A DNA stretch of 64,000 nt, taken from contig JBFIML010000005.1 in NCBI GenBank assembly GCA_041611735.1, positions 71,664-135,663 on the forward strand. Reading direction: 5' to 3'. This DNA is from Myxococcota bacterium (GTDB lineage Bacteria > Myxococcota_A > UBA9160 > PR03). How positions within the stretch are numbered: the first letter of the stretch is position 1; each line of letters opens with the position of its first letter. The notes under the pieces are model-generated. The model did not search any database. It was not told the origin of the DNA and saw nothing but the letters and a program-made list of their open reading frames with translations. Shown piece by piece: positions 4,932 to 50,042 of the stretch. The translations under genes and the position numbers were made by a program.

Positions 4932-7115
<2,184 letters not shown>

Positions 7116-7156
7116 CTACGCGTGCCTGCCGCGGCCGACGGGAGGAAGGGCTGATC

Positions 7157-9763: not shown

Positions 9764-9813
9764 CGGCGGCCCGCCGCGCGGTTCGCGGCAAGCTCCGAAC
9801 CCGCCAGCCGAGC

Positions 9814-17884: not shown

Positions 17885-19009
17885 ATGACCGGTAGCCCGG
17901 CTCGGGAACCCGCACGGCAGCGCCCCGCCCGCGCCCCGCTGCTCGGGCCCGTGCTTCGCGACCTTCGTGGGGGAGGGCCGCGCCTGGTGGCCGAGAAGAT
18001 CCTGGGCCGGGCGCGCCGTGGCTACCAGTACGGCCTCTACACCTTCAACGTCCGGCGCCTGGTGCGACGCCCGGAGTCCGTGCGGATCGACCGGCCGATC
18101 TTCATCCTGGGCGTCCAGGGTGGCGGCGTCACCGTGCTCGCCCGCACCCTGTATCGGCATCCGCAGGCGGTCTACGCCACGGGAAACTCCCGCTACTGGG
18201 CAGGCATCGACGAGATCCACAACTGCCCGCACATCCGGGACCTTCCGGATCCCCTGGTTCACCGCTCGTACCACTTCGGCAACGTGGATTCGAGCGTCGT
18301 GCACCACCCCCGCTACGGCTATCAGCGCTCCTGGCTCTATGCGATCGACGAGTTCCTGCCGCTCTACCGGCGTGGCGCCGACGACGTGGACCCGGAGACC
18401 ACGCGACGCTTCCGGAGGGTGCTCCAGAAGGCGATCCTCGCCTATGCGCCGGACCCGGACGACGCCCGCTTCGTGGACATGAGCCAGCTCTACACCATCC
18501 AGGTCCCCTACCTGGCCCGCATGCTCCAGGACTGCGACCCGCGCTTCGTGCTGGTTTCGCGCAACCCCTACGTCACCTGCGCACGGGCCGCGGCCAAGGA
18601 GTTCGGGCCCGAGAAGGGCAGCTACATTGGCGACGATCGCAAGGCCCGGAATCGCTGCGTGATCGAGCACTGGAGCAACTCCTATCGCCTGGCGCTGGAG
18701 GCCGCAGCCCAGGGGGTGCCCCTCCTCCCGCTTCGCTACGAGGACTTCCTGGCCCGGCCCGAGGCCATCGTCCGGCGGATCTGCCAGTTCGCCGCTCTCG
18801 AGTTCCATCCCCGCCAGGTTCCGGCCCCGGACCACAGCTTCCCGATCGGCTCGCTCGAAGCGAGCAAGTGGTATCCGCTGCGTCCCGCGGAGAACGCGCT
18901 GTACCTGAAGGACATCGACCCGGAGCTGGTCGAGGGGCTGAACGAGCGGGCGGGCAACCTGGTGGAGCGGCTGGGCTACGAGCGGCTGGAGCCGCGGCGG
19001 TCGCGGTGA
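17885..19009 (+). CDS. Sulfotransferase-family protein (degenerate PAPS loop)
   Basis: RPIFILGVQGGGVTVLARTLYRHP, FVLVSRNP, LRYEDFLARPEAIVRRICQF, LVERLGY. Confidence 0.75.
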   Translation: MTGSPAREPARQRPARAPLLGPVLRDLRGGGPRLVAEKILGRARRGYQYGLYTFNVRRLVRRPESVRIDRPIFILGVQGGGVTVLARTLYRHPQAVYATGNSRYWAGIDEIHNCPHIRDLPDPLVHRSYHFGNVDSSVVHHPRYGYQRSWLYAIDEFLPLYRRGADDVDPETTRRFRRVLQKAILAYAPDPDDARFVDMSQLYTIQVPYLARMLQDCDPRFVLVSRNPYVTCARAAAKEFGPEKGSYIGDDRKARNRCVIEHWSNSYRLALEAAAQGVPLLPLRYEDFLARPEAIVRRICQFAALEFHPRQVPAPDHSFPIGSLEASKWYPLRPAENALYLKDIDPELVEGLNERAGNLVERLGYERLEPRRSR

Positions 19010-20142: not shown

Positions 20143-21060
20143 CTAGGGACCCAGGGCTTCCAGGACGCGGGCGTGGGCGGGCAGGTCGGGCCGCAGCGCC
20201 ACCACGTCCGGCGAGCCGGGCTCGGCGACGTCCGCCGGCTCGGCGTGCAGGCGGCCCTCGCGCAACGCGAAGACCGGGTAGCCGGCCTCCGCCAGCAGGC
20301 GCCGCACCGCGGCGTAGCTCGTGCCGGCGGCGGAGAAGTGCCGGGAGTCTGCCTCGAAGACCACCACGGGGGGTGAAGCGCCGCGCAGCAGGCCGCGCGC
20401 GCCCCGCAGGACCTCGAGCTCCATGCCCTCCACGTCGATCTTGACCAGGTCCGGCGTCCGGCGTCCGGCAAAGTACGCATCCAGGGTCGTCACCTCGGCG
20501 TCCACGGGGATGCCCTCGGGATGGGCGTAGCGCGAGGAGAGGCCCGAGATGGCGGGCACGGTGTGCAGCGTGATGCGGCCCGCAGTCGCACCGACCGCCC
20601 CGGACAGCAGCGTGACGTTGCGGAAGCCGTTCAGCTCCAGGTTCCGCAGCAGCCGCGCCCGGGTGGCTGGCACCGGCTCGAAGGCATGAACCGCGCCATC
20701 CGGGCCGGCGCGGCGGGCGGCCCACAGCGTGTAGAGGCCCAGGTTCGCGCCCACGTCGGCGAACACCCCGCCTGGGGGGAGGGCGGCCTCGAAGAGCGGC
20801 GCCAGGTGGGGCCGCGTGTGGCCCAGGAGGACGAGACCGAGCATGTTGGCGTCCCGCCCCGGGTTCCCCTCGAAGCGAAGGCCCTCCCAGAACCTGCCGC
20901 GCACCGTCGCGTCGAAGCGGCGCGCGTAGCGTTTGAGGCCGACGATCAGCGCGTCGCGCCCCGGGAAGTCGGGTGCGGCGTAGGCGAGGCTCACGCCCCG
21001 CAGCGCCCACCGCAGCCTGCGGGGCGCCTCGGGCCCCCGGTCCGACCGGGCCGGGTTCAC
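20143..21060 (-). CDS. FkbM family methyltransferase
   Basis: FADVGANLGLYT, AVHAFEP, TTLDAY, LVKIDVEGMELEVLRG. Confidence 0.9.
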   Translation of the reverse strand: MNPARSDRGPEAPRRLRWALRGVSLAYAAPDFPGRDALIVGLKRYARRFDATVRGRFWEGLRFEGNPGRDANMLGLVLLGHTRPHLAPLFEAALPPGGVFADVGANLGLYTLWAARRAGPDGAVHAFEPVPATRARLLRNLELNGFRNVTLLSGAVGATAGRITLHTVPAISGLSSRYAHPEGIPVDAEVTTLDAYFAGRRTPDLVKIDVEGMELEVLRGARGLLRGASPPVVVFEADSRHFSAAGTSYAAVRRLLAEAGYPVFALREGRLHAEPADVAEPGSPDVVALRPDLPAHARVLEALGP

Positions 21061-21830
21061 GAAGGCCGCTCGAAGACGTGGACGCAGCCGTGGCGCGCCA
21101 CCCCGCGGAAGCCGAGCCCCTCGAAGGCCGCCTGCAGGCTCGCCTCGTCCTCGTCCCGGCCTTCGAAGCGCACCGGGTGGAGCTCGATCACGACCTGCTC
21201 GCAGGCTGCCAGCGCGCTCGCGTCCCGGCGCACGATGCCCGCCTCGGCTCCTTCGATGTCGGCCACCAGGGCGAAGGGCCCCACGTCGTGCTCCTTCAGC
21301 AGCTGGGAGAGCCTCGCCGTCGGCACGTGGCGCACGCCGCGTCCCGTGGCGTCGCGACCGATGGTGCTGCCGCCCAGGTTCGTGTCCCCGAAGACGAGCT
21401 CGACCTCCTGGCGCTCCGGGTCGTAATCGAGGGCCCGATTCACCACGGACACCGGGTGGCCGGGCGCGTTGGCGGCGAGATTCTGGCGCAGCAGCGGAAT
21501 CAAGTCGGGGTTCGCCTCCACGCACACGAGCTTTCTTCCCGGGGCCTGGCGGCGAGCCACGGCGCACGCGACCACCCCGATGCTGCTGCCGAGCTCGACC
21601 ACGTCCAGGTTCCGGCGCAGCCGGCTGCGCACGAAGCGCATCTCGGCGCTCTCGTAGATGCCGAAGAAGATGCTCGCCGCGAGGCGCGCTGGGACCAGAG
21701 GGGAGCTCACGTCGATGCGGGAGCCCGGAAAGCGCAGGTTCGGCACTCGCTGGCCGAAGACCGCCGCGATGGTTGCGCCGACCGGCGCGCTGCAGGCGAT
21801 CCCAGCCACCCACGTCTTGGCGCGCGACAT
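21057..21830 (-). CDS. FkbM family methyltransferase
   Basis: GIYESAE, VVELGSSIG, VCVEANP, LVADIEGAE, IELH. SD GGAGG before ATG. Confidence 0.8.
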   Translation of the reverse strand: MSRAKTWVAGIACSAPVGATIAAVFGQRVPNLRFPGSRIDVSSPLVPARLAASIFFGIYESAEMRFVRSRLRRNLDVVELGSSIGVVACAVARRQAPGRKLVCVEANPDLIPLLRQNLAANAPGHPVSVVNRALDYDPERQEVELVFGDTNLGGSTIGRDATGRGVRHVPTARLSQLLKEHDVGPFALVADIEGAEAGIVRRDASALAACEQVVIELHPVRFEGRDEDEASLQAAFEGLGFRGVARHGCVHVFERPS

Positions 21831-21944
21831 CTCCTCCCGCCCCACGGCCCGTACGGGCCGGTGTGCGTCCCCCGCCGGACACGAAGCGCGAGAGTATACT
21901 CGGCGGACCCTGTTCGCGGGAACCGTCGCCGGAGGATTGCTTCG

Positions 21945-27359: not shown

Positions 27360-29612
27360 CTAGGGAGGCCCGTCGAGAACCACCAGGCGGCTGCTCCCCC
27401 GGGCCTGGGAGGCCTTCCAGCCCGGGATGCGGCTCCCGATCGCCACGGCCGAGTTCGAGGCGAGCCCGCCGGTCAGGCGCAGGCTGCCCCGTTCGATGGC
27501 CGAGTTCAGGAAGATCGGCCCGCCCGCGGCCGAGAAGTCCACCAGCGGCTGCGGCGACGCCGCCTCGGGCGGGGCGAGCCGCAGCCGGTCGAAGACCAGG
27601 GGAAAGCCGGCGCCGGTCATGGTGGTGGTCACCAGGACGGGCGAGGTGGAGTCGAGAGCGTGGAAGTACCAGACCCCGCTGGCCGAGTTGCGGACGGAGA
27701 GATCCCGCTCGCGGGTGCCGCGCACCGTCGCGCCGAGAACCGCCCAGGTCCCTCCGCTGAGGGCCCCCTCCGCGTGCCCCATGCTGATGCGGTTGTCCAC
27801 GAAGCGGCCCCGGTAGACCAGGTTCGCCAGCGCGTTGTAGGACCCGATCGCCAGGCCGTGGCCCGCGTTCTGGAACGCCACATCCACCATCAGGTTCTCG
27901 GAGCACTGGGCCCCCGACTCGAGCCCGATCCCGAGGCCGTAGGCGCCGCCGTCGAAGACGACGTCGTAGAAGGACACCTCCTGGCTGGCGTGTCCCACCC
28001 CCTGCGCGTTCTCCAGGGCGAAGGCGGCCTCGCCCCCGGGCGCCGGGCCCTGCGTGCCGGGTGCCGTCCGGAACGTGATGCCCTGGACGGTGGCGTACGC
28101 GAGGCCCTGCGTGGCGAAGACGCCCCCGCTTCCGTCGCGCCGGACGACGGTACGGTCGCTTCCCGCCCCGGCGATCCACCCCCCGGACGGATGCCGGGTG
28201 CAGCGCGCCTTGCGGTGGTTGAGCCGCAGGACGTCCGTGACCCGGTAGGTCCCGGCCGGGAGATGCAGCAGCTTGGGCGTCTTGCCGTCGCAGCCCGCGT
28301 CGAGGGCGGCCTGGATGGCCCGGGTGTCGTCGTGCTCGCCGTCCCCGCGCGCTCCGAAATCGCCCACGCTCAACATGCCCGGCAGGGCGCGGGTCAGGCG
28401 GGGGCGGGGCAGGGGAGGCGGGACCTCGACGAGCGGGAAGCTCGGCAGCGCCGCCTTCGGGCCCGGGCTGCGATCGGCCAGGAAACGGGTCCCCGGTGGG
28501 ATGGGAATGCGGGTCCGGTGGCGGTAGGAGTGGAGGTTGGCCCGGGCGAAGACCCGCTTCGTTGACTCCGGAAACGCTCCGGCCTCGTCGAAGACCAGGT
28601 TCCCCACCGCCACCAGTGTGGCCTTGGGAGCATTGCCGGAGACCAGGGCGCCGGCGCCGAGTGCCCCGTTGTTGCCCGCCAGCCAGACGCTGCCCGTGGC
28701 GTGGTAGTCCACGAAGCGCCCGCGCCCGCGTCCCTGGCCGGCCCAGCTGCCTCCGTTCGAGAGCAGGACGAGGTCCACCGGTTGCGACGTGGGTGGGACG
28801 TGCACGAGGGTCGAGGGAAACGTCCCCCGACGGGCGCCGTTGTTGCCCTCGCTTCGCACGTTGGCGATCACGTGGGGGCCGTGGCGGGAGGCCGCGTCGA
28901 TGCGGAAGTCCGCGATGCCGTTGCCGGCCTGCACGCCCGTGCCGAAGACGCGCAGGTGCCCGCGCCGCACCCAGACGTGGAAGAGTGCGTCGCCGGGGAG
29001 GCGCGGCGGCCGCCCGGCGTTCGAGATGTTGCCCCCGACCAGCACGACGCGTGCATCCGGATGGTCCACCACCACGGTCGACTGCACTGCGCCCCGGGGC
29101 AGGAAGACGCTCCCCTGGAGACGCACGTCGCCGGGGCCCTGCAGGACGAGCGCGGACTCGGCCACGCTGCAGTCCTGGAGCTCGAGCTGGAGTGGCTCCC
29201 GATTGCGCGCCAGGACGGCGACGAAGCCCGGCGGGCCGTCCCGCTGTGGGGCCTCCAGGCGCAGCCCGGCGAGATTCACGTGGGGCGCCTTCTCCAGCAC
29301 GAAGAGCGGATGCTCCGGATGCCGCGGCACGAGCCGCGTGTGGACCCGGTCGGCCCCGTGCAGGAAGAGGGGCTCGTCGCGGGAGACCACCAGGGGATTG
29401 TCCACCCGATGGACCCCCGGCCGCAGGTAGACGTGCCGGTGCGCGGCCAGGGCCTTCGCCAGGGAGGCGCCCGGCTCGAGGGCCACGAAGGCGTCGTAGC
29501 TCGCCGGTCGCCCGTCGGTCCCCCGGGCCGCGTGGGGAGCCACCCCGGGAACGGCGAGCAGGACGAGGAGCGCGATCCGCAGGCGGGACGGCGCGGGCGC
29601 CGTCCCGCTCAC
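27360..29612 (-). CDS. Secreted tandem beta-helix protein with Pectate_lyase_3/GH28-like domain
   Basis: Signal IALLVLLAVPGVAPHA, N-terminal YLRPGVHRV...LHGADR module, internal SVGDFGARGDGEHDDTRAIQAALDA...LPAGTYRV. Confidence 0.75.
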   Translation of the reverse strand: MSGTAPAPSRLRIALLVLLAVPGVAPHAARGTDGRPASYDAFVALEPGASLAKALAAHRHVYLRPGVHRVDNPLVVSRDEPLFLHGADRVHTRLVPRHPEHPLFVLEKAPHVNLAGLRLEAPQRDGPPGFVAVLARNREPLQLELQDCSVAESALVLQGPGDVRLQGSVFLPRGAVQSTVVVDHPDARVVLVGGNISNAGRPPRLPGDALFHVWVRRGHLRVFGTGVQAGNGIADFRIDAASRHGPHVIANVRSEGNNGARRGTFPSTLVHVPPTSQPVDLVLLSNGGSWAGQGRGRGRFVDYHATGSVWLAGNNGALGAGALVSGNAPKATLVAVGNLVFDEAGAFPESTKRVFARANLHSYRHRTRIPIPPGTRFLADRSPGPKAALPSFPLVEVPPPLPRPRLTRALPGMLSVGDFGARGDGEHDDTRAIQAALDAGCDGKTPKLLHLPAGTYRVTDVLRLNHRKARCTRHPSGGWIAGAGSDRTVVRRDGSGGVFATQGLAYATVQGITFRTAPGTQGPAPGGEAAFALENAQGVGHASQEVSFYDVVFDGGAYGLGIGLESGAQCSENLMVDVAFQNAGHGLAIGSYNALANLVYRGRFVDNRISMGHAEGALSGGTWAVLGATVRGTRERDLSVRNSASGVWYFHALDSTSPVLVTTTMTGAGFPLVFDRLRLAPPEAASPQPLVDFSAAGGPIFLNSAIERGSLRLTGGLASNSAVAIGSRIPGWKASQARGSSRLVVLDGPP

Positions 29613-30793
29613 CGCCGACGGGAGGTCCGGCGCCGGCGCCGTGCGGCGCGCAGCAGGGGGACCACCAGCAGTGCCTCGAGGCCCAGCAGACCGCAGCCAC
29701 CCTCGGGCGCCTCGGTGTCGTCCCAGTCGGCGGAGCACTGCGGGTCGGCGGGGTAGTCGATCAGGCCGTCGCCGTCGTTGTCTGCCCCGTCCTGGCACTG
29801 GCCGACCTCCGAGCTGCCGAGCCGGTCCTTGCACGTGATTTCCCACAACGCCTCGAGGTTCCCGTCGAAGTCCTCGTCGAGGCCACCGAAGTCGATGCGC
29901 CCATCGCCGTCGTTGTCCACGCCGTCCACGCAAGGCAGCGTGGGCAGGGTCTGGAACACCCACTTCTCGGGATCGATGTAGTTGACGCCGTCCACGCCGA
30001 TCCCGATCTGGGTGAGCAGCGGCATGTTGCCGGTGGGCCCGGGATAGCCGTAGACGAACAGGCCGTGCGCGTGGGCCCGGTCGACCACCGCCTGGGTGAT
30101 GGTGTTGGTGAGGATGCCGACGCCGAAGTCGCCGTTGGCGGCCAGTTCCTGGAGGACCGGGTCCGTCAGGTCGGCGGCCGCGTAGCCGCCCACGATGCGC
30201 CGCACGTTGGGCAGGTTCTGGCGGAACTCCGGGTTCATGATCTGCTGCCGGGTCCACACGATCAAGGTGTCCGGGTCGATCCCCGTGCGCTGGAAGATGT
30301 CGAGGATCGGCAGCGTCTGGCCCGGGTTCTTGATCTCCACCACCAGCGAGAGCCCGCTTCCGTCCACGAGCAGCAGGGCCTCCTCGAGGGTCGGCATCGG
30401 CGTGCCCGCGAACGCCGGGTCGAACCAGGAGCCGGCGTCGAGCTGCTGGAGCTGGGCCACGGTGAAGTCCCCGGGCCGGGGAAAGCGGCCCAGGGGATTG
30501 TTCGAGGCGACCACGCAGTCGTAGCCCCAGTCCTCGATGTTGGTGGTGCGGCAGAGGCTCACGTCGTGGTGGAGGATGGGGATCCCGTCCGCACTCGACC
30601 AGGAGTCCGTCTCCATCCACTGGTTCCCGATGGAGAGGGTGTGGGCGAAGGTGGGAAGCGTGTTCTCGGGAGCATGCACGCGTCCGCCCCGGTGCACGAG
30701 CCCCGTGACCTTGGCCTCGGCCGCGCCCGTCAGCAGGACGAGGGCCAGCGCCGCCAGCCCCGTTCGTCCAGCGCGAAACGCGTTCGCTCCCAT
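29609..30793 (-). CDS. Exported glycerophosphodiester phosphodiesterase (GDPD) with Cys/Asp Ca-binding repeats and a C-terminal sorting signal
   Basis: Signal ...LLTGAAEA; HRGG, PENT, METD, HHD, PTLEEAL, VEIK; two CxDGxDNDGDGxID repeats; tail GGCGLLGLEALLVVPLLRAARRRRR. Confidence 0.85.
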   Translation of the reverse strand: MGANAFRAGRTGLAALALVLLTGAAEAKVTGLVHRGGRVHAPENTLPTFAHTLSIGNQWMETDSWSSADGIPILHHDVSLCRTTNIEDWGYDCVVASNNPLGRFPRPGDFTVAQLQQLDAGSWFDPAFAGTPMPTLEEALLLVDGSGLSLVVEIKNPGQTLPILDIFQRTGIDPDTLIVWTRQQIMNPEFRQNLPNVRRIVGGYAAADLTDPVLQELAANGDFGVGILTNTITQAVVDRAHAHGLFVYGYPGPTGNMPLLTQIGIGVDGVNYIDPEKWVFQTLPTLPCVDGVDNDGDGRIDFGGLDEDFDGNLEALWEITCKDRLGSSEVGQCQDGADNDGDGLIDYPADPQCSADWDDTEAPEGGCGLLGLEALLVVPLLRAARRRRRTSRRR

Positions 30794-31115
30794 CGTCCTG
30801 GTTCTCCCCGCCAATCCGACCATGATCTGGGCAGGCTGCGCCGGAGTCAAGCCGACGCTGCGACGCAGCGCAGGCGCAAGGAGCGGGATGCCAGGCGAGG
30901 CGGCAGGATAGGGGGCGCCCCTGCGGATCGGCGCTGGCTCGGAGCTCGGGGCGCGCCGCTCAATGGCGACGGGCGACGCGCCGATCCCTGCGGGCAGGCC
31001 GGTCCCCTTGCGCCCCAGGTCGCCTGGGATAACCTGCTGTGTTTTCAAAGCCTTAGCCAGGAGCCCAGGCCGGACCGCAGCCCGGTTGGGGGGACCAGGA
31101 CGGGAACCAGCTTCC

Positions 31116-31796
31116 ATGCAAGGACTGCTCAACCTCGGCTCGGGCGCCCCCCTCTCGATCCCGGCCCTGCTGCTCAACATCGCCGTGGGCGTGGTGCTGG
31201 CCGGAGTCCTGCGCTGGCACTTCCAGCGCTTCGGCTCGAGCCTCTCGAACCGCGCCGAGTTCGCGCAGATCTTCCCCTTCATCCTGCTGACCACGATCCT
31301 GATCATCACGGTCGTGAAGTCGTCCCTCGCCCTCTCCCTGGGCCTGGTGGGGGCCCTCTCCATCGTGCGCTTCCGGACCCCGGTCAAGGAGCCCGAGGAG
31401 CTGGCCTACCTCTTCATGGCCATCGCCATGGGGCTCGGGCTCGGCGCCGACCAGACCATCCCCACCGTCGTGGCGGGCCTGCTGATCCTCGGCATCGTGG
31501 CCGCCTTCCGCTGGCAGCGCGCGGGCTCCGAGCAGAAGAACCTGTTCCTCTCCGTGGCCTGCCCCGACGACCGCCGCGACGGGCGCTTCCTCGAATCGCT
31601 GAACGAGGTGGTGCAGCGGCACGTCTCGGCGGGCGACATGCGGCGCGTGGACGCCCGCGACGGGGCGTGGGAGGCAACCTTCCTGCTGGACGTGAAGGAC
31701 AGCCAGAGCGTGGTCTCGCTGATGGACGACCTGCGCAGCACGTTCCCCGGCGTCGGGCTCACCTTCATCGATCAGAACCGAATGCCCAGCGTGTAG
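31116..31796 (+). CDS. DUF4956 membrane protein
   Basis: LIITVVKSSLALSLGLVGALSIVRFRTPVKEPEELAYLF signature, several TMs and a soluble C-terminal domain. Confidence 0.9.
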   Translation: MQGLLNLGSGAPLSIPALLLNIAVGVVLAGVLRWHFQRFGSSLSNRAEFAQIFPFILLTTILIITVVKSSLALSLGLVGALSIVRFRTPVKEPEELAYLFMAIAMGLGLGADQTIPTVVAGLLILGIVAAFRWQRAGSEQKNLFLSVACPDDRRDGRFLESLNEVVQRHVSAGDMRRVDARDGAWEATFLLDVKDSQSVVSLMDDLRSTFPGVGLTFIDQNRMPSV

Positions 31797-31812
31797 CGAC
31801 GAGGGCTCTTCC

Positions 31813-34455
31813 GTGCTCCTCGACTCCGGACCGAAGCAAGGGGCCGCGCGGCCGCGGCGGCGCGTGGTGTGGCCGCTCGGCCTGCTCGTCCTGCTGGCCT
31901 GGGGGGGCATCTTCTTCGCCGCAGGCTTCGCCTTCCGGGACTTCATCCGGCCGAGCCTCCAGGCCCTGACCGGCCGCACCCAGCTCGATGACGCCCTCGA
32001 CTCCGTGCTGCGGGCGCCCGGCCGCTGGATACGCGCGCGGGTGCGTCCCGCGCCGGTAGAGACCCTGCACCTCGACATCCGGTTCCGGCACCTGCGCAAG
32101 ATCCACGAGAAGCGCGAGGAGGCGCTGGCGCAGGGGCTGCTCGTCACCGCGGACGACGACATGGTGCCCGCCGAGATCCGGCACGGAGACCGCACCCTGC
32201 CCGTGAAGCTGCGCCTGAAGGGCGACCTTTCGGACCACCTGGAGGGTGACAAGTGGTCGTTCCGCATCCACGTGCGCCGCGGAGATGCGCTGTTCGGAAT
32301 GCGGCGCTTCTCGATCCAGGCGCCGTCCACCCGGGGCTTCCAGGCGGAGCCGCTGTTCTTCGAGACCTTGCGCCAGGAGGGCGTGCTCGCCCCCCGCTAC
32401 GTCTTCGTGGACGTGCGGGTCAACGGCAAGGACATCGGGCTCATGGGTCTCGAGGAGCACTTCAGCAAGGAGCTGCTCGAGTCCCAGAGGCGTCGCGAGG
32501 GCGTGATCCTCAAGTTCGACGAGTCGCTCTTCTGGGAGAACGTGCTGGTGAACGGCCAGCACGGGCCCTACGACAACTACCGCCTGGCCCCCATCGTGCC
32601 CTTCGGAGGGGGCGGCATCGAGGCGTCTCCCACCCTGTCGGCGGACCTGGCCGCCTCCACGGCGTTGCTACGCGCCTTCGTGGAGGAGAAGGTCACGGCC
32701 TCCCAGGCCTTCGACGAGGAGCTCCTGGGACGCTTCCTGGCGGTCTGCGAGCTGTGGAGTTCCCTGCACGCCGTGCGCTGGCACAACCTGCGCTTCTACT
32801 TCAATCCGGTGGACCGCGAGCTCGAGCCGATCGGCTTCGACGGGAATCTCCAGGCCCACTACGTCGGCAACGGGTTGCTGGTGCTGGAGGAGCCCATCGG
32901 GCGCCTGTTCCTGTCCGATGCGCGCGTGCGCGAGGCCTATGTCAGGAACCTGCGGCGCCTGGCGGGGCAGATGGTGGACGGCTCGCTGCCCGCGCGGTTG
33001 CGCGAGCTGGAGGCGCCGCTCTTGCGCGTGCTCCAGGCGGAGTTCCCGTTGCGGGCTCCCGTCGACTTCGGTCCGCTGGTGGCCCGGGCCCGCGAGCTCG
33101 ATCTCCTGGAGGTCGCCGGGCTCGCCAACTTCCGCACTCCGGCGCCCCGCTCCGAGCGCAGCTGGCCGGCCGTGGTGGTGGCCAGCCTGGTCGAGGACGC
33201 AAACGGACCGCTGCTCGAGCTGCGCAACCCGCTGCCCCTGCCGGTGCGCATCGAGACCCTGAGCGTGCGGAGCAACCGGGCCGACGACGGGGCGCTGCCC
33301 GGGCTCCCGCTGCGGCTCGAGCCCACGGACGTGGGGGGGCGCCCGGAGCCCGTGACGCTGCGTCTGCCGGGCCAGGCAGCGCGTGCCGCCGATGCGGTGG
33401 TGGAAGGCACGGCCGTCGTGGACGGAGCGGCGCGTCCCTACCGCTTCGAAGCCCGCCGCTCCCCGGCGACGGCGTCCGGACCCCTGCTTCCGGCCGTGGA
33501 CACGGAGACGCTGCTCCGACGCCACGCCTTCCTGGCCCGCGACGAAGACGCCGGCTTCCTGCGCGTGCGCCCCGGCACCTGGTCGGTCGAGGCTCCCCTG
33601 CTCCTGCCCGAGGGCCTCGGCCTGCGCATGGCCGCGGGGACGACGCTGCGCTTCGCCCCGGAAGCGAGCCTGGTGGCCCGGGGGCCACTCGATTTCCGCG
33701 GGCGACCCGACGCCCCCATCGTCCTCGAGCCCCGGGACGAGTCGGCGGCCGGAGCCTGGCGCGGCGTCCTGGTGCTCGGCGCAGGGCAGGAGTCGCGCTG
33801 GTCCCACGTGCAGGTGCGTGGCACCGACGCCTTCCGCCTGGGCGCGTGGAGCCTCACCGGAGCGATCACCTTCTACGAGAGCGACGCGCGTCTCGAGCAC
33901 TGCCGCTTCACCGGCAACCGCGGCGAGGATTCGCTCAACGTGATCCGCTCCCGGCTGACGCTCCTCGAGCCCGTCTTCCGCGACGCCGCCTCCGACGCCT
34001 TCGACGGGGACTTCGTGGAGGGGAGCGTGGTCGGGGGGCTCTTCGAGGACGTGGCAGGGGACGCGGTGGACGTGAGCGGCTCGCAGCTGGAGGTGCGGGG
34101 AACCGTCTTCCGGCGCATCCGGGACAAGGCGGTCTCGGTGGGGGAGGGCAGCCGCCTCGTGGCCAGCGGCCTGCTGGTGGAGCAGTCCGGTACGGGGATC
34201 GCCAGCAAGGACCGCTCCGAGGCCGTAGTGAGCGACTCCACCCTGCGCGGCATCGAGCACGTGGCCCTCATGGCATACGTCAAGAAGGCCGAATACGGTC
34301 CTGCCAGCCTGCAGGCGCACAAGATCACCGTGGAAGGCGCCGCCCACGAGGCCCTGGCCCAGACCGGCAGCCGGATCACCCTGGACGGGCGGAGCGTGCC
34401 GGAGACGGAGTTCGACGTGGACCGGCTCTACCGCGAAGGGTACATGAAGAAGTGA
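31813..34455 (+). CDS. CotH kinase-family protein fused to a C-terminal right-handed beta-helix
   Basis: N-terminal TM; KLRLKGD...HLEGDKWSFRI, VRVNGKDIGLMGLEEH, HNLRFYFNP...EPIGFDG; C-terminal EDSLN/DAFDGDF/GDAVDVSGS/DKAVSVGEGS turns. Confidence 0.8.
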   Translation: MLLDSGPKQGAARPRRRVVWPLGLLVLLAWGGIFFAAGFAFRDFIRPSLQALTGRTQLDDALDSVLRAPGRWIRARVRPAPVETLHLDIRFRHLRKIHEKREEALAQGLLVTADDDMVPAEIRHGDRTLPVKLRLKGDLSDHLEGDKWSFRIHVRRGDALFGMRRFSIQAPSTRGFQAEPLFFETLRQEGVLAPRYVFVDVRVNGKDIGLMGLEEHFSKELLESQRRREGVILKFDESLFWENVLVNGQHGPYDNYRLAPIVPFGGGGIEASPTLSADLAASTALLRAFVEEKVTASQAFDEELLGRFLAVCELWSSLHAVRWHNLRFYFNPVDRELEPIGFDGNLQAHYVGNGLLVLEEPIGRLFLSDARVREAYVRNLRRLAGQMVDGSLPARLRELEAPLLRVLQAEFPLRAPVDFGPLVARARELDLLEVAGLANFRTPAPRSERSWPAVVVASLVEDANGPLLELRNPLPLPVRIETLSVRSNRADDGALPGLPLRLEPTDVGGRPEPVTLRLPGQAARAADAVVEGTAVVDGAARPYRFEARRSPATASGPLLPAVDTETLLRRHAFLARDEDAGFLRVRPGTWSVEAPLLLPEGLGLRMAAGTTLRFAPEASLVARGPLDFRGRPDAPIVLEPRDESAAGAWRGVLVLGAGQESRWSHVQVRGTDAFRLGAWSLTGAITFYESDARLEHCRFTGNRGEDSLNVIRSRLTLLEPVFRDAASDAFDGDFVEGSVVGGLFEDVAGDAVDVSGSQLEVRGTVFRRIRDKAVSVGEGSRLVASGLLVEQSGTGIASKDRSEAVVSDSTLRGIEHVALMAYVKKAEYGPASLQAHKITVEGAAHEALAQTGSRITLDGRSVPETEFDVDRLYREGYMKK

Positions 34456-35138
34456 CCGTCTCCGCCGCCGACCTGCGTTACGAGGTCAAGTTCGTGGCCT
34501 CTCCCCTCGGGCTGGCGACCCTCGAGCGCTGGATCCGCGACCATCCGGCGGGCTTCCGCGTGGCCTATCCGGCTCGGCAGGTGAACAGTGCCTACTTCGA
34601 CGACCACGACCTCTCGGCCTACGCGGAGAACCTCTCGGGCGTCAGCGCACGAACCAAGGTCCGCTTCCGCTGGTATGGCGAGGACGACGGGAGCCCGAGC
34701 GGGGTCCTGGAGCTCAAGTGCAAACGCAACCGGCTCGGCTGGAAGCGCAGCCACCCGGTCGCCGCACTCCCGCTGGCCGGTGTGAGCTGGCGGGAGATCC
34801 TGCGCAAGCTGAGGGACCAGGTGCATCCGGAGGCGCGCCTGGCCCTGGACGCCCACCCGGTGGTGGTGCTGGTGAACCGCTACTGGAGGCAGTACTGGGT
34901 CTCCCAGGACGGCCGGGTGCGCATCACCCTGGACGCGCGCCAGCGCGTCTACGATCAGCGCCGCTCCGCCACCCCCAACCTCGAGCGGCCCGTGAACCTG
35001 CCGGACACGCCGGTCCTGGAGATCAAGGGCGCCTTCCAGGACCGGGCGCGGGTGGAGCTGGCGATCCAGGGCGTGCCGCTCCGCGTGAGCCGCCACTCCA
35101 AGTACGTGGTGGGCGTGCAGAGGATCCTGGCCGCCTGA
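34452..35138 (+). CDS. VTC domain (polyphosphate polymerase / TTM) protein
   Basis: GTGA overlap; RYEVKF, VNSAYFD, RTKVRFRWYG, LELKCK, YWRQY, RITLD, VLEIK, SKY. Confidence 0.88.
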   Translation: MTVSAADLRYEVKFVASPLGLATLERWIRDHPAGFRVAYPARQVNSAYFDDHDLSAYAENLSGVSARTKVRFRWYGEDDGSPSGVLELKCKRNRLGWKRSHPVAALPLAGVSWREILRKLRDQVHPEARLALDAHPVVVLVNRYWRQYWVSQDGRVRITLDARQRVYDQRRSATPNLERPVNLPDTPVLEIKGAFQDRARVELAIQGVPLRVSRHSKYVVGVQRILAA

Positions 35139-35174
35139 GGCGCCCATGTCGGGCTTCGCGGAGACGACTGGAGC

Positions 35175-36959
35175 ATGACGGGAGCCACTGCTCGACGCGC
35201 GCGCGCGGGCTTCCTCGGGGTCTTCTGGCTCTACCTGGTGGGCCTGGCCTTGGCGACCACTCCAGCCCACTACGCCGCCCTCGACCTGGCCGGAATCAGC
35301 GTGCTCTATGCCCTCCTGGCGGTGTCCCTGGGGCTGGGTGCGCTCTGGCTCGCCTGCTTCGGCTGGCTGGCGGCGCTGCCGGCAGCCCTGGGTCTCGCGG
35401 CCGTGTCGGTCTGGCACCTGCGCGAGCAGACCTGGCTGCCCTATTCGCGCCAGGCCTTCGTGTCGAGCGTCGTGGTGACGGCGGTCGTCCTGGTGCCCCT
35501 GCTCCGCGCGCTGGCGCCCTCCACCCGCCGGCGCACCCTCCGGGCGAGCCTGGCGGCAGCCGCCGCCCTGGTCATCGCCCTGCTCGGGGCCTACTTCGGC
35601 TCCAACCAGCTTCGCTGGCATCTGCTCCTGCACAACAAGCTGATGGGGACGCCCACCTTCCTGGCCCTCGGAAGGCCCGCCGGCGACGTGCGCAGCGCGC
35701 TCTGGGACTCCCGATCCGGGAGCGGCATCCTGCCGCCCGCGATCCGGGCACCGGCCCGCAGCGTGCCGGTGCCCGGGGCGTCCCCCGACGTGGTCTTCGT
35801 CCTGATCGACACCCTGCGAGCCGACGCGCTGGCCCTGCACGGAGGCGCCCCCGACCTCATGCCGGGGCTGAACCGGCTCGCGGAGCGCTCCCTGGTCTTC
35901 GAAGACCTGCGGGCCAACGCGAGCTGGACCAAGTCTTCGGTGGCCTCCTTCTTCACCGGCTTGCTTCCCGAGGAGCACGGAGCCGTCGATCATCCCGACC
36001 GCCTGCGAGGCGAATGGACCGCGCTGGCAGAGGTCTTCGCGGACCTGGGCTATCGGACGGCGGCCTTCGTGACCAACTACGGCAACGTCGGGCGCGCCAC
36101 GGGCTTCGATCAGGGCTTCGAGGAGTTCTACGAGCTCAAGCGGGACGGGGCCGTCTATACCCGGGCCGAAGGCGTGAACGCGGCGGTGAACCAGTGGATC
36201 GGCCGCGCCGGCCTGGCTGCGCCGGGCCGCGCGCCATTCTTCCTCTACGTCCACTACCTGGATCCACACCTTCCCTACCTGAGCGGCCCCGGGTGGTCGC
36301 CGATCCACGCCCGGGCGCGGGAGGCCTACGATGCCGAGCTTCGCTACGTCGACCGGGCGGTGTCCGAGCTGGTGGATCGCCTGCTCGCGGCCCTTGGCAG
36401 CGGGACCTTCGTCTTCGTGACGTCCGATCACGGGGAGGAGTTCGGCGATCACGGGGAGCGGGACCACGGGCACTCGCTGTACCCGGAGCAGCTCCACCTG
36501 CCGGCGATCCTGCTGACCCCCGCCGGCCGGCACGAGCGGATCGGGGCCCGGCTCGAGGCGCGGGACTTCTTCGACCTGCTGGCGGAGATCGCGCGAGGCG
36601 ACAGCCTGGACGTGGTGTCCTGGAGCCGGGCCCGGAGCCGATCGATCCGGTACGCCTCCCAGTACGTGTCGCGCCCGGCGACCGCCCTGCATCGGCCCCA
36701 GCTGCGGGACACGGTGATGCGATCCGTGGAGGACCCGGACTGGACCCTGATCTGGTCGGGCTTCGGCGAGACCTGGGAGCTCTACCACGACGGGCGGGAT
36801 CCCCGGGAGCTGCAGAACGTGGCGCGGGCCCGACGCGAGACGCTCCAGGCTCTGCGCCCGCGCCTGGACGAAGCGGTGCGCTTCTGGACCCGGCCCGTCG
36901 CCGCCGAACAGTCCCACGACACCATCGAGATGCTCCGCAAGCTCGGCTACGTGCAGTGA
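35175..36959 (+). CDS. Membrane-anchored sulfatase/alkaline-phosphatase-superfamily protein (LtaS-like architecture)
   Basis: About 5 N-terminal TMs, then VLIDTLRAD, ASWTKSSVASFFTG, YVHYLDPHLPY, TSDHGEEF...HG, LRKLGY. Confidence 0.85.
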   Translation: MTGATARRARAGFLGVFWLYLVGLALATTPAHYAALDLAGISVLYALLAVSLGLGALWLACFGWLAALPAALGLAAVSVWHLREQTWLPYSRQAFVSSVVVTAVVLVPLLRALAPSTRRRTLRASLAAAAALVIALLGAYFGSNQLRWHLLLHNKLMGTPTFLALGRPAGDVRSALWDSRSGSGILPPAIRAPARSVPVPGASPDVVFVLIDTLRADALALHGGAPDLMPGLNRLAERSLVFEDLRANASWTKSSVASFFTGLLPEEHGAVDHPDRLRGEWTALAEVFADLGYRTAAFVTNYGNVGRATGFDQGFEEFYELKRDGAVYTRAEGVNAAVNQWIGRAGLAAPGRAPFFLYVHYLDPHLPYLSGPGWSPIHARAREAYDAELRYVDRAVSELVDRLLAALGSGTFVFVTSDHGEEFGDHGERDHGHSLYPEQLHLPAILLTPAGRHERIGARLEARDFFDLLAEIARGDSLDVVSWSRARSRSIRYASQYVSRPATALHRPQLRDTVMRSVEDPDWTLIWSGFGETWELYHDGRDPRELQNVARARRETLQALRPRLDEAVRFWTRPVAAEQSHDTIEMLRKLGYVQ

Positions 36960-44735: not shown

Positions 44736-45398
44736 TCACTCCGGTACGTATTCGGGGAGCCGCGGCACCACCAGGCCCGCGAGCTCCAGGAACGAGGCTT
44801 CGGCGCCGGCCTCGTCGTCGCGGAGGATCGGCGTGGTGAAGCGTACGAGCGAGCCGTCGGTGCGGCCCCGGCGCGCCCGATCCAAGAACAGGTCCACGAT
44901 CTTGAGCCAGTCGTCGGCGATCACGCGCCCGCGCGACTGATACCAGTAGTACACCAGCTGGCGGAGATCGCCGCGGGCGATGACGAGCCGGTTCACGAAC
45001 GCCGGGCCCTGCGGCAGCCCGGGCAGGTCGAGGGGCACCTTGCTCGCGCCGATGATGTCCCAGCCGGAGCCCGGCAGGCAGTGCTTGGGCGGGTGGATCG
45101 AGTTCTCGGCGGAGCCGCCCCCCTCCCGGCGCACCTGCGTGGCGTGGTATCCCACGTACACGCCCACCCGGGTTCGCGGCTCGTCCTTCTCGTAGTCGCA
45201 GATCAGGTAGTCCGTGGCGCCCAGGTTGCGCTCCACGGCGGGATCCAACCGCTCGCGCTCGGCGCAGCGCCAGGGGCCGAGCTCGAGCGGGACGCCGGCA
45301 AAGGAGGCGCGCGCGGGGACCACCTCCTCGGTGGCCAGGAAGTGGTAGGTGTAGAAGTTGAGCGCCAGGAAGACGAGCGCGACGCTGGCCTTGGTCAT
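44736..45398 (-). CDS. epsI: EpsI family exosortase-associated protein
   Basis: N-terminal TM; YVGYH, IHPPKHCLPGSGW, LVYYWYQSRGR, RTDGSLVR. Confidence 0.9.
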   Translation of the reverse strand: MTKASVALVFLALNFYTYHFLATEEVVPARASFAGVPLELGPWRCAERERLDPAVERNLGATDYLICDYEKDEPRTRVGVYVGYHATQVRREGGGSAENSIHPPKHCLPGSGWDIIGASKVPLDLPGLPQGPAFVNRLVIARGDLRQLVYYWYQSRGRVIADDWLKIVDLFLDRARRGRTDGSLVRFTTPILRDDEAGAEASFLELAGLVVPRLPEYVPE

Positions 45399-46306
45399 GT
45401 CCGGGCCTCCCCCATGCGCGCGGGGCTCCGCCGGCGCGGCCACAGCCTCGCCAGCAGCCAGGCCTCCGCCAGCAGCAGCAGGAAGGCCGCCCCGAAGGTG
45501 AACAGCCCCTGGAACTCGTGGATCCAGCCCTCGGCCGCCGGCTGGCCATAGTGGTAGGTGAGGATACCGGTCAGGGCCACGCGGAAGGCGTTGACCAGGA
45601 TGGCGATGGGGATCGCGGAGAGGACGATCACGAGCCGCTCGGAGATGGTCTTGCGAAAGAAGTAGGCAAAGACCACCCCGAGCGTGATCAGCGCCATGAG
45701 CGAGCGCAGGCCGCTACAGGCCTCGGCCACGAAGAGCTGCGAGTGCGGCAGGTGGATGATGTTGCCCTCGCGCAGCGCCGGGACCCCGAGATAGTAGAGC
45801 GCCTGCACCGCCCAGTCCGCCGCCTGCAGCTGGAGTGGAAACGCCACCACGTTGACCAGGGACTGGGGCAGCGGGACCATCATGAACAGGAACAGCAGCG
45901 GGAAGGCGAGCACCGCAAAGACGCGCCGGCCGAGCACCAGCCACACCAGTCCGATCACCGTCAGCACGAAGGAGACGCGCATGTTCATGAGCTCGACGCC
46001 GAGCCGACCCACGGCCAGCGTCGCGCTGCCGAGCGCGAGCGGGAGGACGCCCCACCAGGACGGCTCGATCGGCGCCCGGCGCAGTGCCGCGCGCCGCTCC
46101 CAGGCGAAGTAGAGCGCCAGCGGGACGATCAGGAAGCCGTGGGAGTAGTCCTCGACGTGGTACCAGTGCAGCCCCATGTACCACAGCACCGGAGCGTAGA
46201 CCCCGAGGGTGAGCGCCAGCAGGGCGAGCAGGAACCAGGGCGCGGCGCGTTGCGCCGCGCTGGTCCGGGCGAGCTCGCTCGTCACCGGGCTGGCGTCGGT
46301 GGCCAA
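45395..46306 (-). CDS. xrt: Exosortase (EpsH/Xrt family)
   Basis: YSHGFLI, FPLLFL..MVPLP, catalytic Cys VAEACSGLRSL, Arg NAFRV, His WIHEFQG. Confidence 0.95.
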   Translation of the reverse strand: MATDASPVTSELARTSAAQRAAPWFLLALLALTLGVYAPVLWYMGLHWYHVEDYSHGFLIVPLALYFAWERRAALRRAPIEPSWWGVLPLALGSATLAVGRLGVELMNMRVSFVLTVIGLVWLVLGRRVFAVLAFPLLFLFMMVPLPQSLVNVVAFPLQLQAADWAVQALYYLGVPALREGNIIHLPHSQLFVAEACSGLRSLMALITLGVVFAYFFRKTISERLVIVLSAIPIAILVNAFRVALTGILTYHYGQPAAEGWIHEFQGLFTFGAAFLLLLAEAWLLARLWPRRRSPARMGEART

Positions 46307-46546: not shown

Positions 46547-48286
46547 TCAGTCCAGCTCGTAGATGGTGCGCCAGTCCACGTCCTCGCGCAGCTCGGGCTG
46601 CTCGCGCTTCTCCAGCAGGTGGCTGCCGAGCACGAGGACGTCCATGTCCGTCCGCATGAAGCAGAGGTACGCGTCCTCGGGAGAGCAGACGATCGGCTCG
46701 CCCCGGACGTTGAAGGACGTGTTGATCAGCACCGGGCAGCCCGTCTGCCGCTCGAACTCCGCGAGCAGGGCGTGGAACTCCGGCGCCGCCTCCCGGGTCA
46801 CGGTCTGCAGCCGGGCGGAGCCGTCCACGTGGGTGACGGCGGGGATGTCGCGGCCCTCCCGCACCGGACAGACCAGCAGCATGTACGGGCTCTCCCGGTC
46901 GATGTCGAACCACTCGGCGGCTCGCTCCGCCAGGATCGCGGGCGCGAACGGCCGGAAGCTCTCCCGGAACTTGATCTTCAGGTTGACCCGCTGCCAGTTC
47001 TCCTTGCGGCGCGGGTCCGCCAGGATGCTGCGGCTGCCGAGGGAGCGCGGTCCCCATTCCAGGCGCCCCTGGAACCAGCCCACCACGGCCTGGTCTTCGT
47101 GGATGCGCCGCGCCACCTCCCGGGTCAGCTCCTCGCGGGGCAGCGTGCGATAGGGCACGCCCTTGGCGTCGAGGAAGCGCTGGATCTTGTCGTCGGAGTA
47201 GGCAGGTCCCCAGTAGGGATGCTCCATGCGCCACACGCGCGGCTTGCCGAGCACGGTGTTGTGCACGAAGAGTGCGGCGCCGAGGGCGCTGCCCGCGTCG
47301 CCCGCCGCCGGTTGCACCCAGAGGTTGCGGAAGGGCCCCTCGCGGACGATGCGGCCGTTGGCCACGCAGTTGAGCGCCACGCCGCCGGCCATGCACAGGT
47401 TCTCGAGGCCCGTGTGCGCGTGGAGATCGCGCACCAGCCGCAGCATGATCTCCTCGGTCACCTTCTGGATGCTGGCTGCGCAGTCCCAGTGGAACTGCTC
47501 GAGCTTGCTCTCCGGCTCCCGGCGCGGCTGGCGGAACAGCTCCTCGAAGCGCCGGTTGGTCATGGTGAGACCGTAGTCGTACGCGAAGTACTTCATGTTG
47601 AGCTTGAAGGATCCGTCGTCGCGCAGGTCCACCAGCTCCTTCAGGATGAGGTCGGTGTACTTCGGCTCGCCGTAGGGCGCCGCGCCCATGACCTTGTACT
47701 CGGCGCTGTTCACCTTGAAGCCCAGGTAGTAGGTGAAGGCGCTGTAGAGGAGCCCCAGGGAGTGGGGGAAGCGGATCTCCCGGGCCAGCTCGATCTTCCC
47801 TTCGCGCCCGATGCCCTGGGTGGCGGTGGCCCACTCCCCCACGCCGTCCACGGTGAGGATGGCCGCCTCCTCGAAGGGGGAGGGCAGGAAGGCGGCCGCC
47901 GCGTGGGACTGGTGGTGCTCCGCGAACAGCACCTCGCCCTGGTAGCCGAGCTCCTTGCGGATCATGTTCGGGACCCAGAGCTTCTCCTTGAGCCAGACCG
48001 GAAGCGCCTTGGAGAAGGACGGCAGCGAGCGTGGAAAGGTGGCCAGGTAGGTGATCAGGATGCGCTCGAACTTGATGAAGGGCTTGTCGTAGAACGCCAC
48101 GTAATCGAGATCGGCGGGCGTGAGCCCCGCCTCGCGCAGGCACCAGGCCACGGCCTGGCGCGGAAGGTCCGGGTCGTGCTTCTTGCGGGTGAAGCGCTCC
48201 TCGTGGGCGGCGGCCACCAGGCGGCCTTCCTGGAGCAGGGCGGCGGCGGCGTCGTGGTAGAAGCAGGAGATCCCGAGGATGTTCAT
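46547..48286 (-). CDS. Carbamoyltransferase (NodU/CmcH/SxtI family)
   Basis: ILGISCFYHDAAA, EERFTR, EHHQSHA, DGVGE, EYKVMG, GGVALNC, EWGPRSLGSRS, RESFRPFAP, NTSFN. Confidence 0.96.
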   Translation of the reverse strand: MNILGISCFYHDAAAALLQEGRLVAAAHEERFTRKKHDPDLPRQAVAWCLREAGLTPADLDYVAFYDKPFIKFERILITYLATFPRSLPSFSKALPVWLKEKLWVPNMIRKELGYQGEVLFAEHHQSHAAAAFLPSPFEEAAILTVDGVGEWATATQGIGREGKIELAREIRFPHSLGLLYSAFTYYLGFKVNSAEYKVMGAAPYGEPKYTDLILKELVDLRDDGSFKLNMKYFAYDYGLTMTNRRFEELFRQPRREPESKLEQFHWDCAASIQKVTEEIMLRLVRDLHAHTGLENLCMAGGVALNCVANGRIVREGPFRNLWVQPAAGDAGSALGAALFVHNTVLGKPRVWRMEHPYWGPAYSDDKIQRFLDAKGVPYRTLPREELTREVARRIHEDQAVVGWFQGRLEWGPRSLGSRSILADPRRKENWQRVNLKIKFRESFRPFAPAILAERAAEWFDIDRESPYMLLVCPVREGRDIPAVTHVDGSARLQTVTREAAPEFHALLAEFERQTGCPVLINTSFNVRGEPIVCSPEDAYLCFMRTDMDVLVLGSHLLEKREQPELREDVDWRTIYELD

Positions 48287-49986: not shown

Positions 49987-50042
49987 GCCCCGCCGTGAGC
50001 ACCCCCTGGCCCCAAAACTCGTTTCGAGGGGAGGAGGCGGTC

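Follow-up and report, generated by a model that had tools for sequence, protein, structure and literature searches.

A 64,000-nucleotide stretch of a Myxococcota genome assembly (GCA_041611735.1, contig JBFIML010000005.1, positions 71,664–135,663; the whole stretch is referred to hereafter as the window) carries, between positions 31116 and 36959, adjacent genes for a DUF4956 membrane protein, a CotH-like/β-helix protein, a stand-alone VTC domain and an alkaline-phosphatase (AP)-superfamily enzyme. The locus raises the question of what a soluble enzyme from a polyphosphate polymerase family does beside a membrane protein and a protein predicted to face the periplasm. We find that the first three genes form a conserved three-gene envelope module, of which the fourth is a local neighbor. 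Our tentative reading, which we regard as possible rather than probable, is that polyphosphate (polyP) would be made by the VTC protein, exported via DUF4956 and used by the periplasmic CotH-like protein on a glycan, with the fourth gene serving a separate role.

A DUF4956, CotH-like and VTC gene triad recurs across phyla

Because the window has a G+C content of ~72%, genes were called by codon-position G+C (GC3 phase). The calls place a DUF4956 membrane protein of 226 aa at 31116–31796 (+; PF16316, E 1.9e-14), an anchored periplasmic CotH-like/β-helix protein of 880 aa at 31813–34455 (+; assigned by Foldseek, profile–profile comparison and an AlphaFold2 (AF2) model), a stand-alone VTC (Vtc4-like triphosphate-tunnel) domain of 228 aa at 34452–35138 (+; PF09359, E 1.3e-20) and a membrane-anchored AP-superfamily enzyme of 594 aa at 35175–36959 (+; PF00884, E 3.3e-35). 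The four co-oriented, tightly packed genes of the original prediction, which was made from the DNA letters and their open reading frames (ORFs), are reproduced together with their junctions (a 16-nt gap, a GTGA overlap in which the VTC start overlaps the stop of the CotH-like gene, and a 36-nt gap); the DUF4956 start at 31116 agrees with the N-termini of its orthologues. Checking the families named there against Pfam models upheld VTC (74.4 bits against a cut-off of 23, spanning 233 of 235 model positions) and DUF4956 (54.2 bits against 30.6), whereas the CotH model (PF08757) fell short of its cut-off of 23.8 with 22.7 bits and aligned over model positions 1–114 of 322, the N-lobe only. The host is a Myxococcota-like marine metagenome-assembled genome (MAG; 4.09 Mb, 118 contigs, 95% complete) with a single copy each of the VTC, DUF4956 and CotH-like genes; the nearest DUF4956 relatives are found in MAGs labeled Myxococcota, Myxococcales or Deltaproteobacteria, and matching DNA occurs in marine and sediment metagenomes, with no RNA data set listed as containing it.

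The association of these genes extends well beyond the window. Among 201 genomes drawn evenly from the phylum, VTC is carried by 98, DUF4956 by 104 and CotH by 113, and DUF4956 is present in all 98 VTC genomes. A same-strand DUF4956 gene lies within 6 kb of VTC in 115 of the 119 VTC match rows (a few of which are halves of one split match), such that the pairing of the two families proposed in the original prediction is one of near-obligate neighbors; 77 of the 115 pairs are directly adjacent, and the other 38 enclose a gene of 1.4–3.8 kb, the class to which the window locus belongs. Relatives of the CotH-like/β-helix protein occur in 27 of the 201 genomes, located between DUF4956 and VTC. Of 20 related loci, 14 contain all three genes in the order DUF4956, CotH-like, VTC (gene presence scored by tblastn).

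The same triad is seen in a set of 80 cross-phylum loci (L032–L111) found with the DUF4956 alignment, where VTC is present in 67, a CotH-like gene in 61 and both in 54, counts that are lower bounds because several loci are cut by contig ends. The kinase-like and β-helix parts share a single ORF in 53 of the 80, and the gene order is DUF4956>CotH-like>VTC in 38, CotH-like>DUF4956>VTC in 12 and DUF4956>VTC>CotH-like in 4. (The search patterns account in part for the invariance of the DUF4956 motif in these 80 loci; the set of 16 orthologues used below is free of this bias.) When 14 named control genomes were scanned for the three families, all three occurred together in the same three organisms, Bacteroides thetaiotaomicron, Corynebacterium glutamicum and Methanosarcina acetivorans, with Bacillus subtilis giving a CotH match only. 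Since the core recurs in so many genomes, its arrangement in the window is not due to chance. The original prediction had named failure to co-occur across genomes as a result that would tell against a four-gene cassette; on this point, the triad recurs across many phyla, whereas a homologue of the fourth gene accompanies it in 1/20 and 1/80 loci.

The gene set itself has precedent in print. In Whitfield et al (10.1101/768473 = PMC7112168), cotH, a polyP polymerase, DUF4956 and DUF4832 are accessories of Gram-positive pel operons, and an account of Streptococcus intermedius (10.1101/2024.04.20.589940; PMC12345266, mBio 2025), describes the three proteins SIR_1592–1594 and reports less Pel and less Pel-dependent aggregation in mutants of the DUF4956-like and CotH-like genes. 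Its authors state that they did not encounter the triad beyond Pel loci, a statement contradicted by the many non-Pel contexts observed here; in the window itself, a Pfam scan of 46 genes revealed neither Pel families nor DUF4832. The Gram-positive sets resemble our locus in that the same three families lie contiguously beside exopolysaccharide (EPS) genes and have the same protein layout (the CotH-like protein secreted, the VTC-like protein in the cytoplasm and the third protein with transmembrane (TM) and ACT parts). They differ in that the window host is of Gram-negative type, the genes lie in a Wzx/Wzy/exosortase locus in the order DUF4956>CotH-like>VTC, the C-terminal fusion is a β-helix where the Pel-set CotH is described with FN3, and a histidine occupies the position of the catalytic aspartate, where the S. 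intermedius protein is reported to have its catalytic residues present. The original view that the pathway had not been characterized experimentally therefore holds for its biochemistry, of which our literature searches found none, and needs correcting for the gene set, which is published with mutant phenotypes. Whereas the association is known from Pel loci, what is particular to the window is the exosortase/Wzx–Wzy EPS setting, the β-helix fusion, the His-variant site and the accompanying AP-superfamily and glycerophosphodiester phosphodiesterase (GDPD) genes.

Folds and conserved residues of the three proteins

The VTC protein is, by its sequence, a member of the VTC domain family, to our knowledge the only family of polyP polymerases other than PPK. 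A profile of 16 orthologues matches, across the PDB, only the tunnel domains of Vtc4, Vtc2 and Vtc3 (3g3q, E 9.3e-9), and alignment with Vtc4 pairs the R-x-R-W-Y-G motif, two E-x-K strands, Y-x-R and the S-K-Y/F motif. Residues R9, E11, K13, R67, K69, R71, R73, E87, K89, E190, K192, S216 and K217 are invariant, and the tunnel residues are kept in 64–67 of 67 cross-phylum relatives. Two strands read E-x-K as in Vtc4; the first strand (R-x-E-x-K) starts with Arg and falls outside the Vtc4 alignment. The S-K of Vtc4 is matched by S216-K217, within a part of the alignment that lacks significance by itself, and this pair is kept in 64/67 relatives. Published work gives Lys-458 as catalytic in Vtc4p and notes that, at positions that are basic in Vtc4p, hydrolases of the triphosphate tunnel metalloenzyme (TTM) group have four Glu (PMC4641920). 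Activity of the protein as a polyP polymerase is likely.

No hydrophobic segment is present in the 228 residues and Pfam finds no further domain, in agreement with the stand-alone cytoplasmic VTC domain that had been proposed. The eukaryotic architecture, a tunnel domain fused to a TM domain, is absent. The eukaryotic VTC complex (yeast Vtc4, Vtc3 or Vtc2, and Vtc1; PDB 3g3q, 7ytj, 8i6v) shares the PF09359 tunnel domain and, probably, its basic character with the bacterial protein, which differs in having neither an SPX domain nor a TM domain of its own; in place of Vtc1-type TM subunits, DUF4956 with its five helices and ACT-like domain would be its partner in the membrane. PPK1, PPK2 and PPX are encoded elsewhere in the host genome, so the VTC protein would be an extra, dedicated enzyme.

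The CotH-like protein comprises a signal-anchor (aa ~21–43), a CotH-fold domain (aa ~84–440), a β-sandwich (aa ~456–549) and a right-handed β-helix (aa ~574–860), as seen in an AF2 model of pLDDT 83 and pTM 0.82. This model superimposes on Bacillus cereus CotH (5jd9) in Foldseek with E 4.5e-12 and a TM-score of 0.68 on the target over 377 columns, and profile–profile comparison (hhalign) with canonical CotH gives 99% probability at E 2.9e-18. The C-terminal region matches right-handed β-helix enzymes, namely GH87 glucanases, AlgG/AlgE epimerases and alginate lyases (Foldseek, E 4e-6 to 7e-4). The single N-terminal anchor helix is preceded by five Lys/Arg residues, which argues for an N-in orientation with the bulk of the protein in the periplasm; the predicted face agrees with the placement outside the cytoplasm made originally.

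The active site departs from that of the canonical kinases. Our reference consisted of eight canonical CotH proteins from the phylum, which carry an invariant D-x4-N loop followed ~20 residues later by a W-D motif; the catalytic residues D228 and D251 of B. subtilis CotH, as given in PMC7821199, were placed on this motif by spacing rather than by alignment of the B. subtilis protein. Profile–profile alignment puts His319 at the catalytic Asp, Asn325 at the loop Asn and Asp343 at the metal-binding Asp of the W-D motif. Among the 61 cross-phylum relatives, 51 have His and 2 have Asp at the position of the catalytic Asp, the loop Asn is kept in 51 and the metal-binding Asp in 48, while Glu and Pro of the pair preceding that Asp are each present in 57. 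Because His replaces the canonical catalytic Asp, ordinary kinase chemistry is not to be assumed; the conserved H...N...D pattern suggests an active but non-canonical site rather than random decay, and at the sequence level argues for a conserved non-canonical active site. The protein thus lies outside the CotH kinase family by family criteria while having the fold in common, and the earlier label of a CotH kinase with a β-helix is upheld for the fold, anchor and β-helix only, given the sub-threshold Pfam score and the lost catalytic Asp. Relative to the Bacillus spore-coat kinase (5jd9/5jda), it shares the fold, the loop Asn and the metal-binding Asp, and differs in the His for Asp exchange, the membrane anchor, the periplasmic location and the β-helix fusion.

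Two variants of this gene arrangement were observed among the collected loci. In L039, a second CotH-like/β-helix paralogue of 960 aa (9105–11987, +; matching the CotH and Beta_helix models of Pfam) follows immediately on the triad's downstream side. Three loci from the phylum sample (L022, L023 and L024, from genomes G185, G192 and G038) encode a canonical, Asp-type, lipoprotein-like CotH followed by VTC and then DUF4956, the last scoring much higher on Pfam (E ~1e-38 to 1e-44); since this form differs, at least two module subtypes exist within one phylum.

DUF4956 is modeled (AF2, pLDDT 79) with five TM helices ahead of a ferredoxin-like/ACT domain at its C-terminus (aa ~139–226). This domain resembles ACT, PII-like and S6 folds (Z ~10) and bears a weak likeness to the C-domain of MgtC (2lqj, E 5e-3). 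Across 16 orthologues of 32–63% identity, an invariant block spans the third helix and the following loop (K68, R85, R87, K91, E92, E94, E95). Lys/Arg counts predict an N-out, C-in topology, and by the positive-inside rule loop 1, the invariant charged loop and the ACT domain would be cytoplasmic. A DUF4956 sequence profile matched nothing in the PDB up to E 10, and Pfam gave no MgtC match; an MgtC cluster is among the nearest Atlas matches (0.78), a lead only. The likeness to the MgtC family, for which the structural and Atlas signals are weak, lies in the succession of a small membrane domain of several helices and a ferredoxin-like/ACT domain, and the streptococcal homologue is described as "MgtC TM + ACT" in PMC12345266; unlike MgtC, DUF4956 has an invariant charged block of its own and is locked to VTC. 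Prediction of a 1:1 DUF4956:VTC complex returned no answer (score 0.00) and counts neither for nor against contact.

The exopolysaccharide surroundings and the fourth gene

A Pfam/NCBIfam scan of the neighbors bears out the placement of these genes inside an EPS locus, which contains exosortase EpsH and EpsI, a Wzx-type flippase, a Wzy-like polymerase, several family 4 glycosyltransferases (GT4s) and AsnB, together with a sulfotransferase, a carbamoyltransferase, Poly_export, Wzz/GNVR and an initiating transferase. Two genes, one EpsH-type and the other EpsI (44736–46306, −), make up the split exosortase; their ORFs overlap by ~50 nt and match the N- and C-terminal halves of an XrtD-type model. 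As the sulfotransferase, the carbamoyltransferase and two FkbM-type methyltransferases are encoded here (17885–19009, +; 46547–48286, −; 20143–21845, −), the gene content points to a polymer that bears many decorations. On its flanks, the locus has genes for a PAS histidine kinase and two sigma-54-dependent response regulators (7157–9763, +; 49995–51461, +); a scan for the −24/−12 consensus gave no enrichment, with 42 sigma-54-like matches in the window against 55.6 expected and none in 30794–31115. The latter interval is the 322-bp divergent intergenic region between the GDPD and DUF4956 genes (delimited by GC3-phase gene calling) and the presumed operon promoter region.

How general this setting is can be judged from a flank scan of 22 loci (124 of 200 chosen ORFs): genes of glycan synthesis or modification flank the triad in nine and phosphate genes in four, the remaining loci having unrelated genes. 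The EPS neighborhood of the original prediction is therefore common, not universal. Individual flanks include a gene for a soluble inorganic pyrophosphatase, immediately next to the triad in L035 (5058–5705, −) and in the unrelated L069 (10108–10752, +), and PhoD/PhoX phosphatases in L046 and L065.

The fourth gene encodes an enzyme with five N-terminal hydrophobic segments, an AP-superfamily domain (Sulfatase/AP Pfam model, 122.3 bits) and a DHG metal motif. In alignment with iduronate sulfatase, the protein has a Thr where that enzyme has its formylglycine, and it has no CxPxR motif (no Pro, no Arg); with the C/S-x-P-x-R motif missing and Thr at the nucleophile position, a formylglycine sulfatase was ruled out. 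The multi-TM anchor, AP-superfamily domain and Ser/Thr nucleophile agree with an LtaS/EptA/BcsG-type layout, which we take to be that of membrane-anchored phospho-alcohol transferases (LtaS, EptA/MCR, OpgB, BcsG). The likeness to these enzymes extends to the five N-terminal segments, the periplasmic domain, the Thr nucleophile and DHG; unlike them, the protein matches no specific family model, the phosphoethanolamine-transferase models of NCBIfam giving 15–23 bits against cut-offs of ~500 or more. A homologue stands near the triad in one of the 20 related loci (L009, on the opposite strand) and one of the 80 cross-phylum loci (L034), so that the claim of an LtaS-like transferase integral to the cassette does not hold, and the gene is a local neighbor outside the conserved unit.

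Divergently transcribed from the triad is the gene for a secreted GDPD of 394 aa (29609–30793, −; Pfam GDPD, E 7.9e-19, and NCBIfam), which belongs to the context rather than the core. The protein has a signal peptide and, after an acidic double-disulfide repeat, a Cys/hydrophobic/Arg-rich C-terminal tail that resembles a C-terminal sorting signal, presumably of MYXO-CTERM-like type; among the NCBIfam sorting-signal models, no named model matched it. A longer GDPD ORF (29609–31387, −) was rejected, as it extends 594 nt too far and runs antisense over the DUF4956 gene: its first ~80 residues match only the antisense of DUF4956 genes (8/20 and 33/80 other loci), an artifact of high G+C content. 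The AP-superfamily enzyme and the GDPD may add phospho-alcohol decorations of phospholipid origin to the same polymer and trim them, with polyP playing no part; such a separate decoration/trimming function of the EPS locus is the more likely role for the two.

A possible route for phosphate across the envelope

The near-obligate pairing of a soluble enzyme with a membrane protein, the exported third member and the presence of ordinary polyP enzymes elsewhere in the genome lead us to propose a machine that makes its product inside and hands it over outside. The cytoplasmic VTC protein, as a Vtc4-type tunnel enzyme, would build polyP (a phosphoanhydride chain) from nucleoside triphosphate (NTP) at the inner face of the membrane; DUF4956, probably oligomeric, would be its obligatory membrane partner, with the charged loop and ACT-like domain receiving either the enzyme or the chain, and would pass the chain across the membrane. 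In the periplasm, the β-helix would hold a glycan, here the EPS of the exosortase locus, and the His-variant CotH-fold domain would move phosphate or a piece of polyP from the exported donor onto it. What the analysis shows is how the genes are built and arranged, the folds of their products, which residues are conserved, the predicted topology and how the genes co-occur; polyP synthesis, VTC–DUF4956 contact, translocation, the donor and the acceptor are inferred. The yeast VTC complex offers a precedent for synthesis of polyP coupled to its passage through a membrane, as set out in PMC4641920.

Several observations weigh against this proposal. Four of the 14 aligned CotH-like orthologues (L010, L011, L012 and L014, family f16 of the phylum sample) lack the His and mostly also the Asn and Asp; these shorter proteins (647–753 aa) still sit between DUF4956 and VTC, and because H/N/D-deficient orthologues stay in the triad, catalysis by the CotH-like domain may be dispensable. 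The best orthologue of the window protein (45% identity; locus L017, G183:C51, 1–16610, gene at 6944–9613) has no VTC, DUF4956 or AP-superfamily gene adjacent, and stands among syntenic EPS genes (AsnB, GT4s, a Wzy-like protein of 41% identity, an oxidoreductase of 68% and DUF362 of 69%), with two VTC–DUF4956 pairs elsewhere in its genome, one of them 33 kb off on the same contig. (Downstream of the L017 gene lies a 648-aa ORF with a weak Metallophos match.) EPS context is absent in 13 of the 22 scanned loci. DUF4956 has no detectable likeness to the TM subunits of the Vtc1-type channel, a comparison in which Foldseek and VIA-align matched the C-domain only and were uninformative for the TM part, and in the model it has a layout similar to that of MgtC, which is a regulator and not a channel. 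The first tunnel strand of VTC retains a Glu, E11, that is invariant in 67/67 relatives and sits at the position of the second-metal acidic patch in TTM hydrolases (PMC4641920), making a hydrolase activity possible. The literature on DUF4956 and on CotH/VTC/polyphosphate yielded no biochemical study or measured activity of bacterial members, and the S. intermedius authors suppose that polyP may stay in the cytoplasm (10.1101/2024.04.20.589940; PMC12345266).

In a rival view, the VTC enzyme would make polyP that remains cytoplasmic. DUF4956 would then be an MgtC-like regulator whose ACT domain senses a small ligand and tunes either the phosphate/ATP balance or EPS output, with the CotH-like/β-helix protein acting on, or merely binding, a glycan or surface proteins without polyP. 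The ACT/PII/MgtC-like C-domain, the MgtC cluster among the nearest Atlas matches (again, a lead only), the published description of the streptococcal homologue and the presumed cytoplasmic polyP of those authors, the H/N/D-deficient orthologues and the solitary CotH-like gene of L017 all speak for such an arrangement. It leaves unexplained, however, why a cytoplasmic VTC protein is nearly always accompanied by DUF4956 (115/119), why the third member, across phyla, is usually an exported protein and why a second polyP synthase is kept beside PPK1/PPK2; moreover, the invariant residues of DUF4956, in the membrane and in the loop, suggest a working site more than they do a sensor, and we consider regulation of this kind rather doubtful. 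Should the VTC protein instead drive or control DUF4956 as a tri- or polyphosphatase, or as a motor or gate that cleaves NTP, the cargo handed to the periplasmic protein would be something other than polyP. Near-identical TTM tunnels do differ in activity, AtTTM3 being a tripolyphosphatase despite a Vtc4-like tunnel (PMC4641920), and the invariant E11 would suit a hydrolase; against this, the family model matched is PF09359 and not CYTH, the only PDB sequence matches are Vtc2/3/4 tunnel domains, two of the acidic-patch positions are Lys as in Vtc4, and the S-K motif of the catalytic Lys is kept in 64 of the 67 relatives, such that we think a non-polymerase decidedly improbable.

The full four-gene pathway of the original prediction, with synthesis and export of polyP by VTC and DUF4956, its use by CotH and, as an integral part, a fourth step by the LtaS-like enzyme, would account for the tight packing, including the 36-nt gap before the fourth gene, and for the predicted handling of phosphate esters at the periplasmic face by both the CotH-like and AP enzymes. 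The rarity of a fourth-gene homologue beside the triad (1/20, on the opposite strand, and 1/80) and its absence from the syntenic L017 make this scheme very improbable indeed. A bolder version of the proposal we favor, in which the triad exports polyP without the fourth gene, is that the module constitutes a split bacterial counterpart of VTC: the Vtc4-like polymerase would dock on a DUF4956 oligomer and thread polyP through it into the periplasm, and the His-variant CotH-fold domain would phosphorylate or polyphosphorylate the polysaccharide held by the β-helix, perhaps via a phospho-histidine, with polyP as an ATP-free donor. In this specific form the idea is unlikely.

The module, present in about half of the sampled phylum genomes, in many other phyla and in three named controls, bears on how bacteria power phosphoryl transfer beyond the cytoplasm, in a space that lacks ATP, and on whether they export polyP by a dedicated route. 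If the export proposal is true, the triad would be a bacterial counterpart of the eukaryotic VTC machine, would contain a new class of glycan-modifying enzyme and would offer a handle on EPS and biofilm properties, with the conserved His-for-Asp change providing a sharp, testable prediction; if it fails, the module remains a well-defined target of three proteins.

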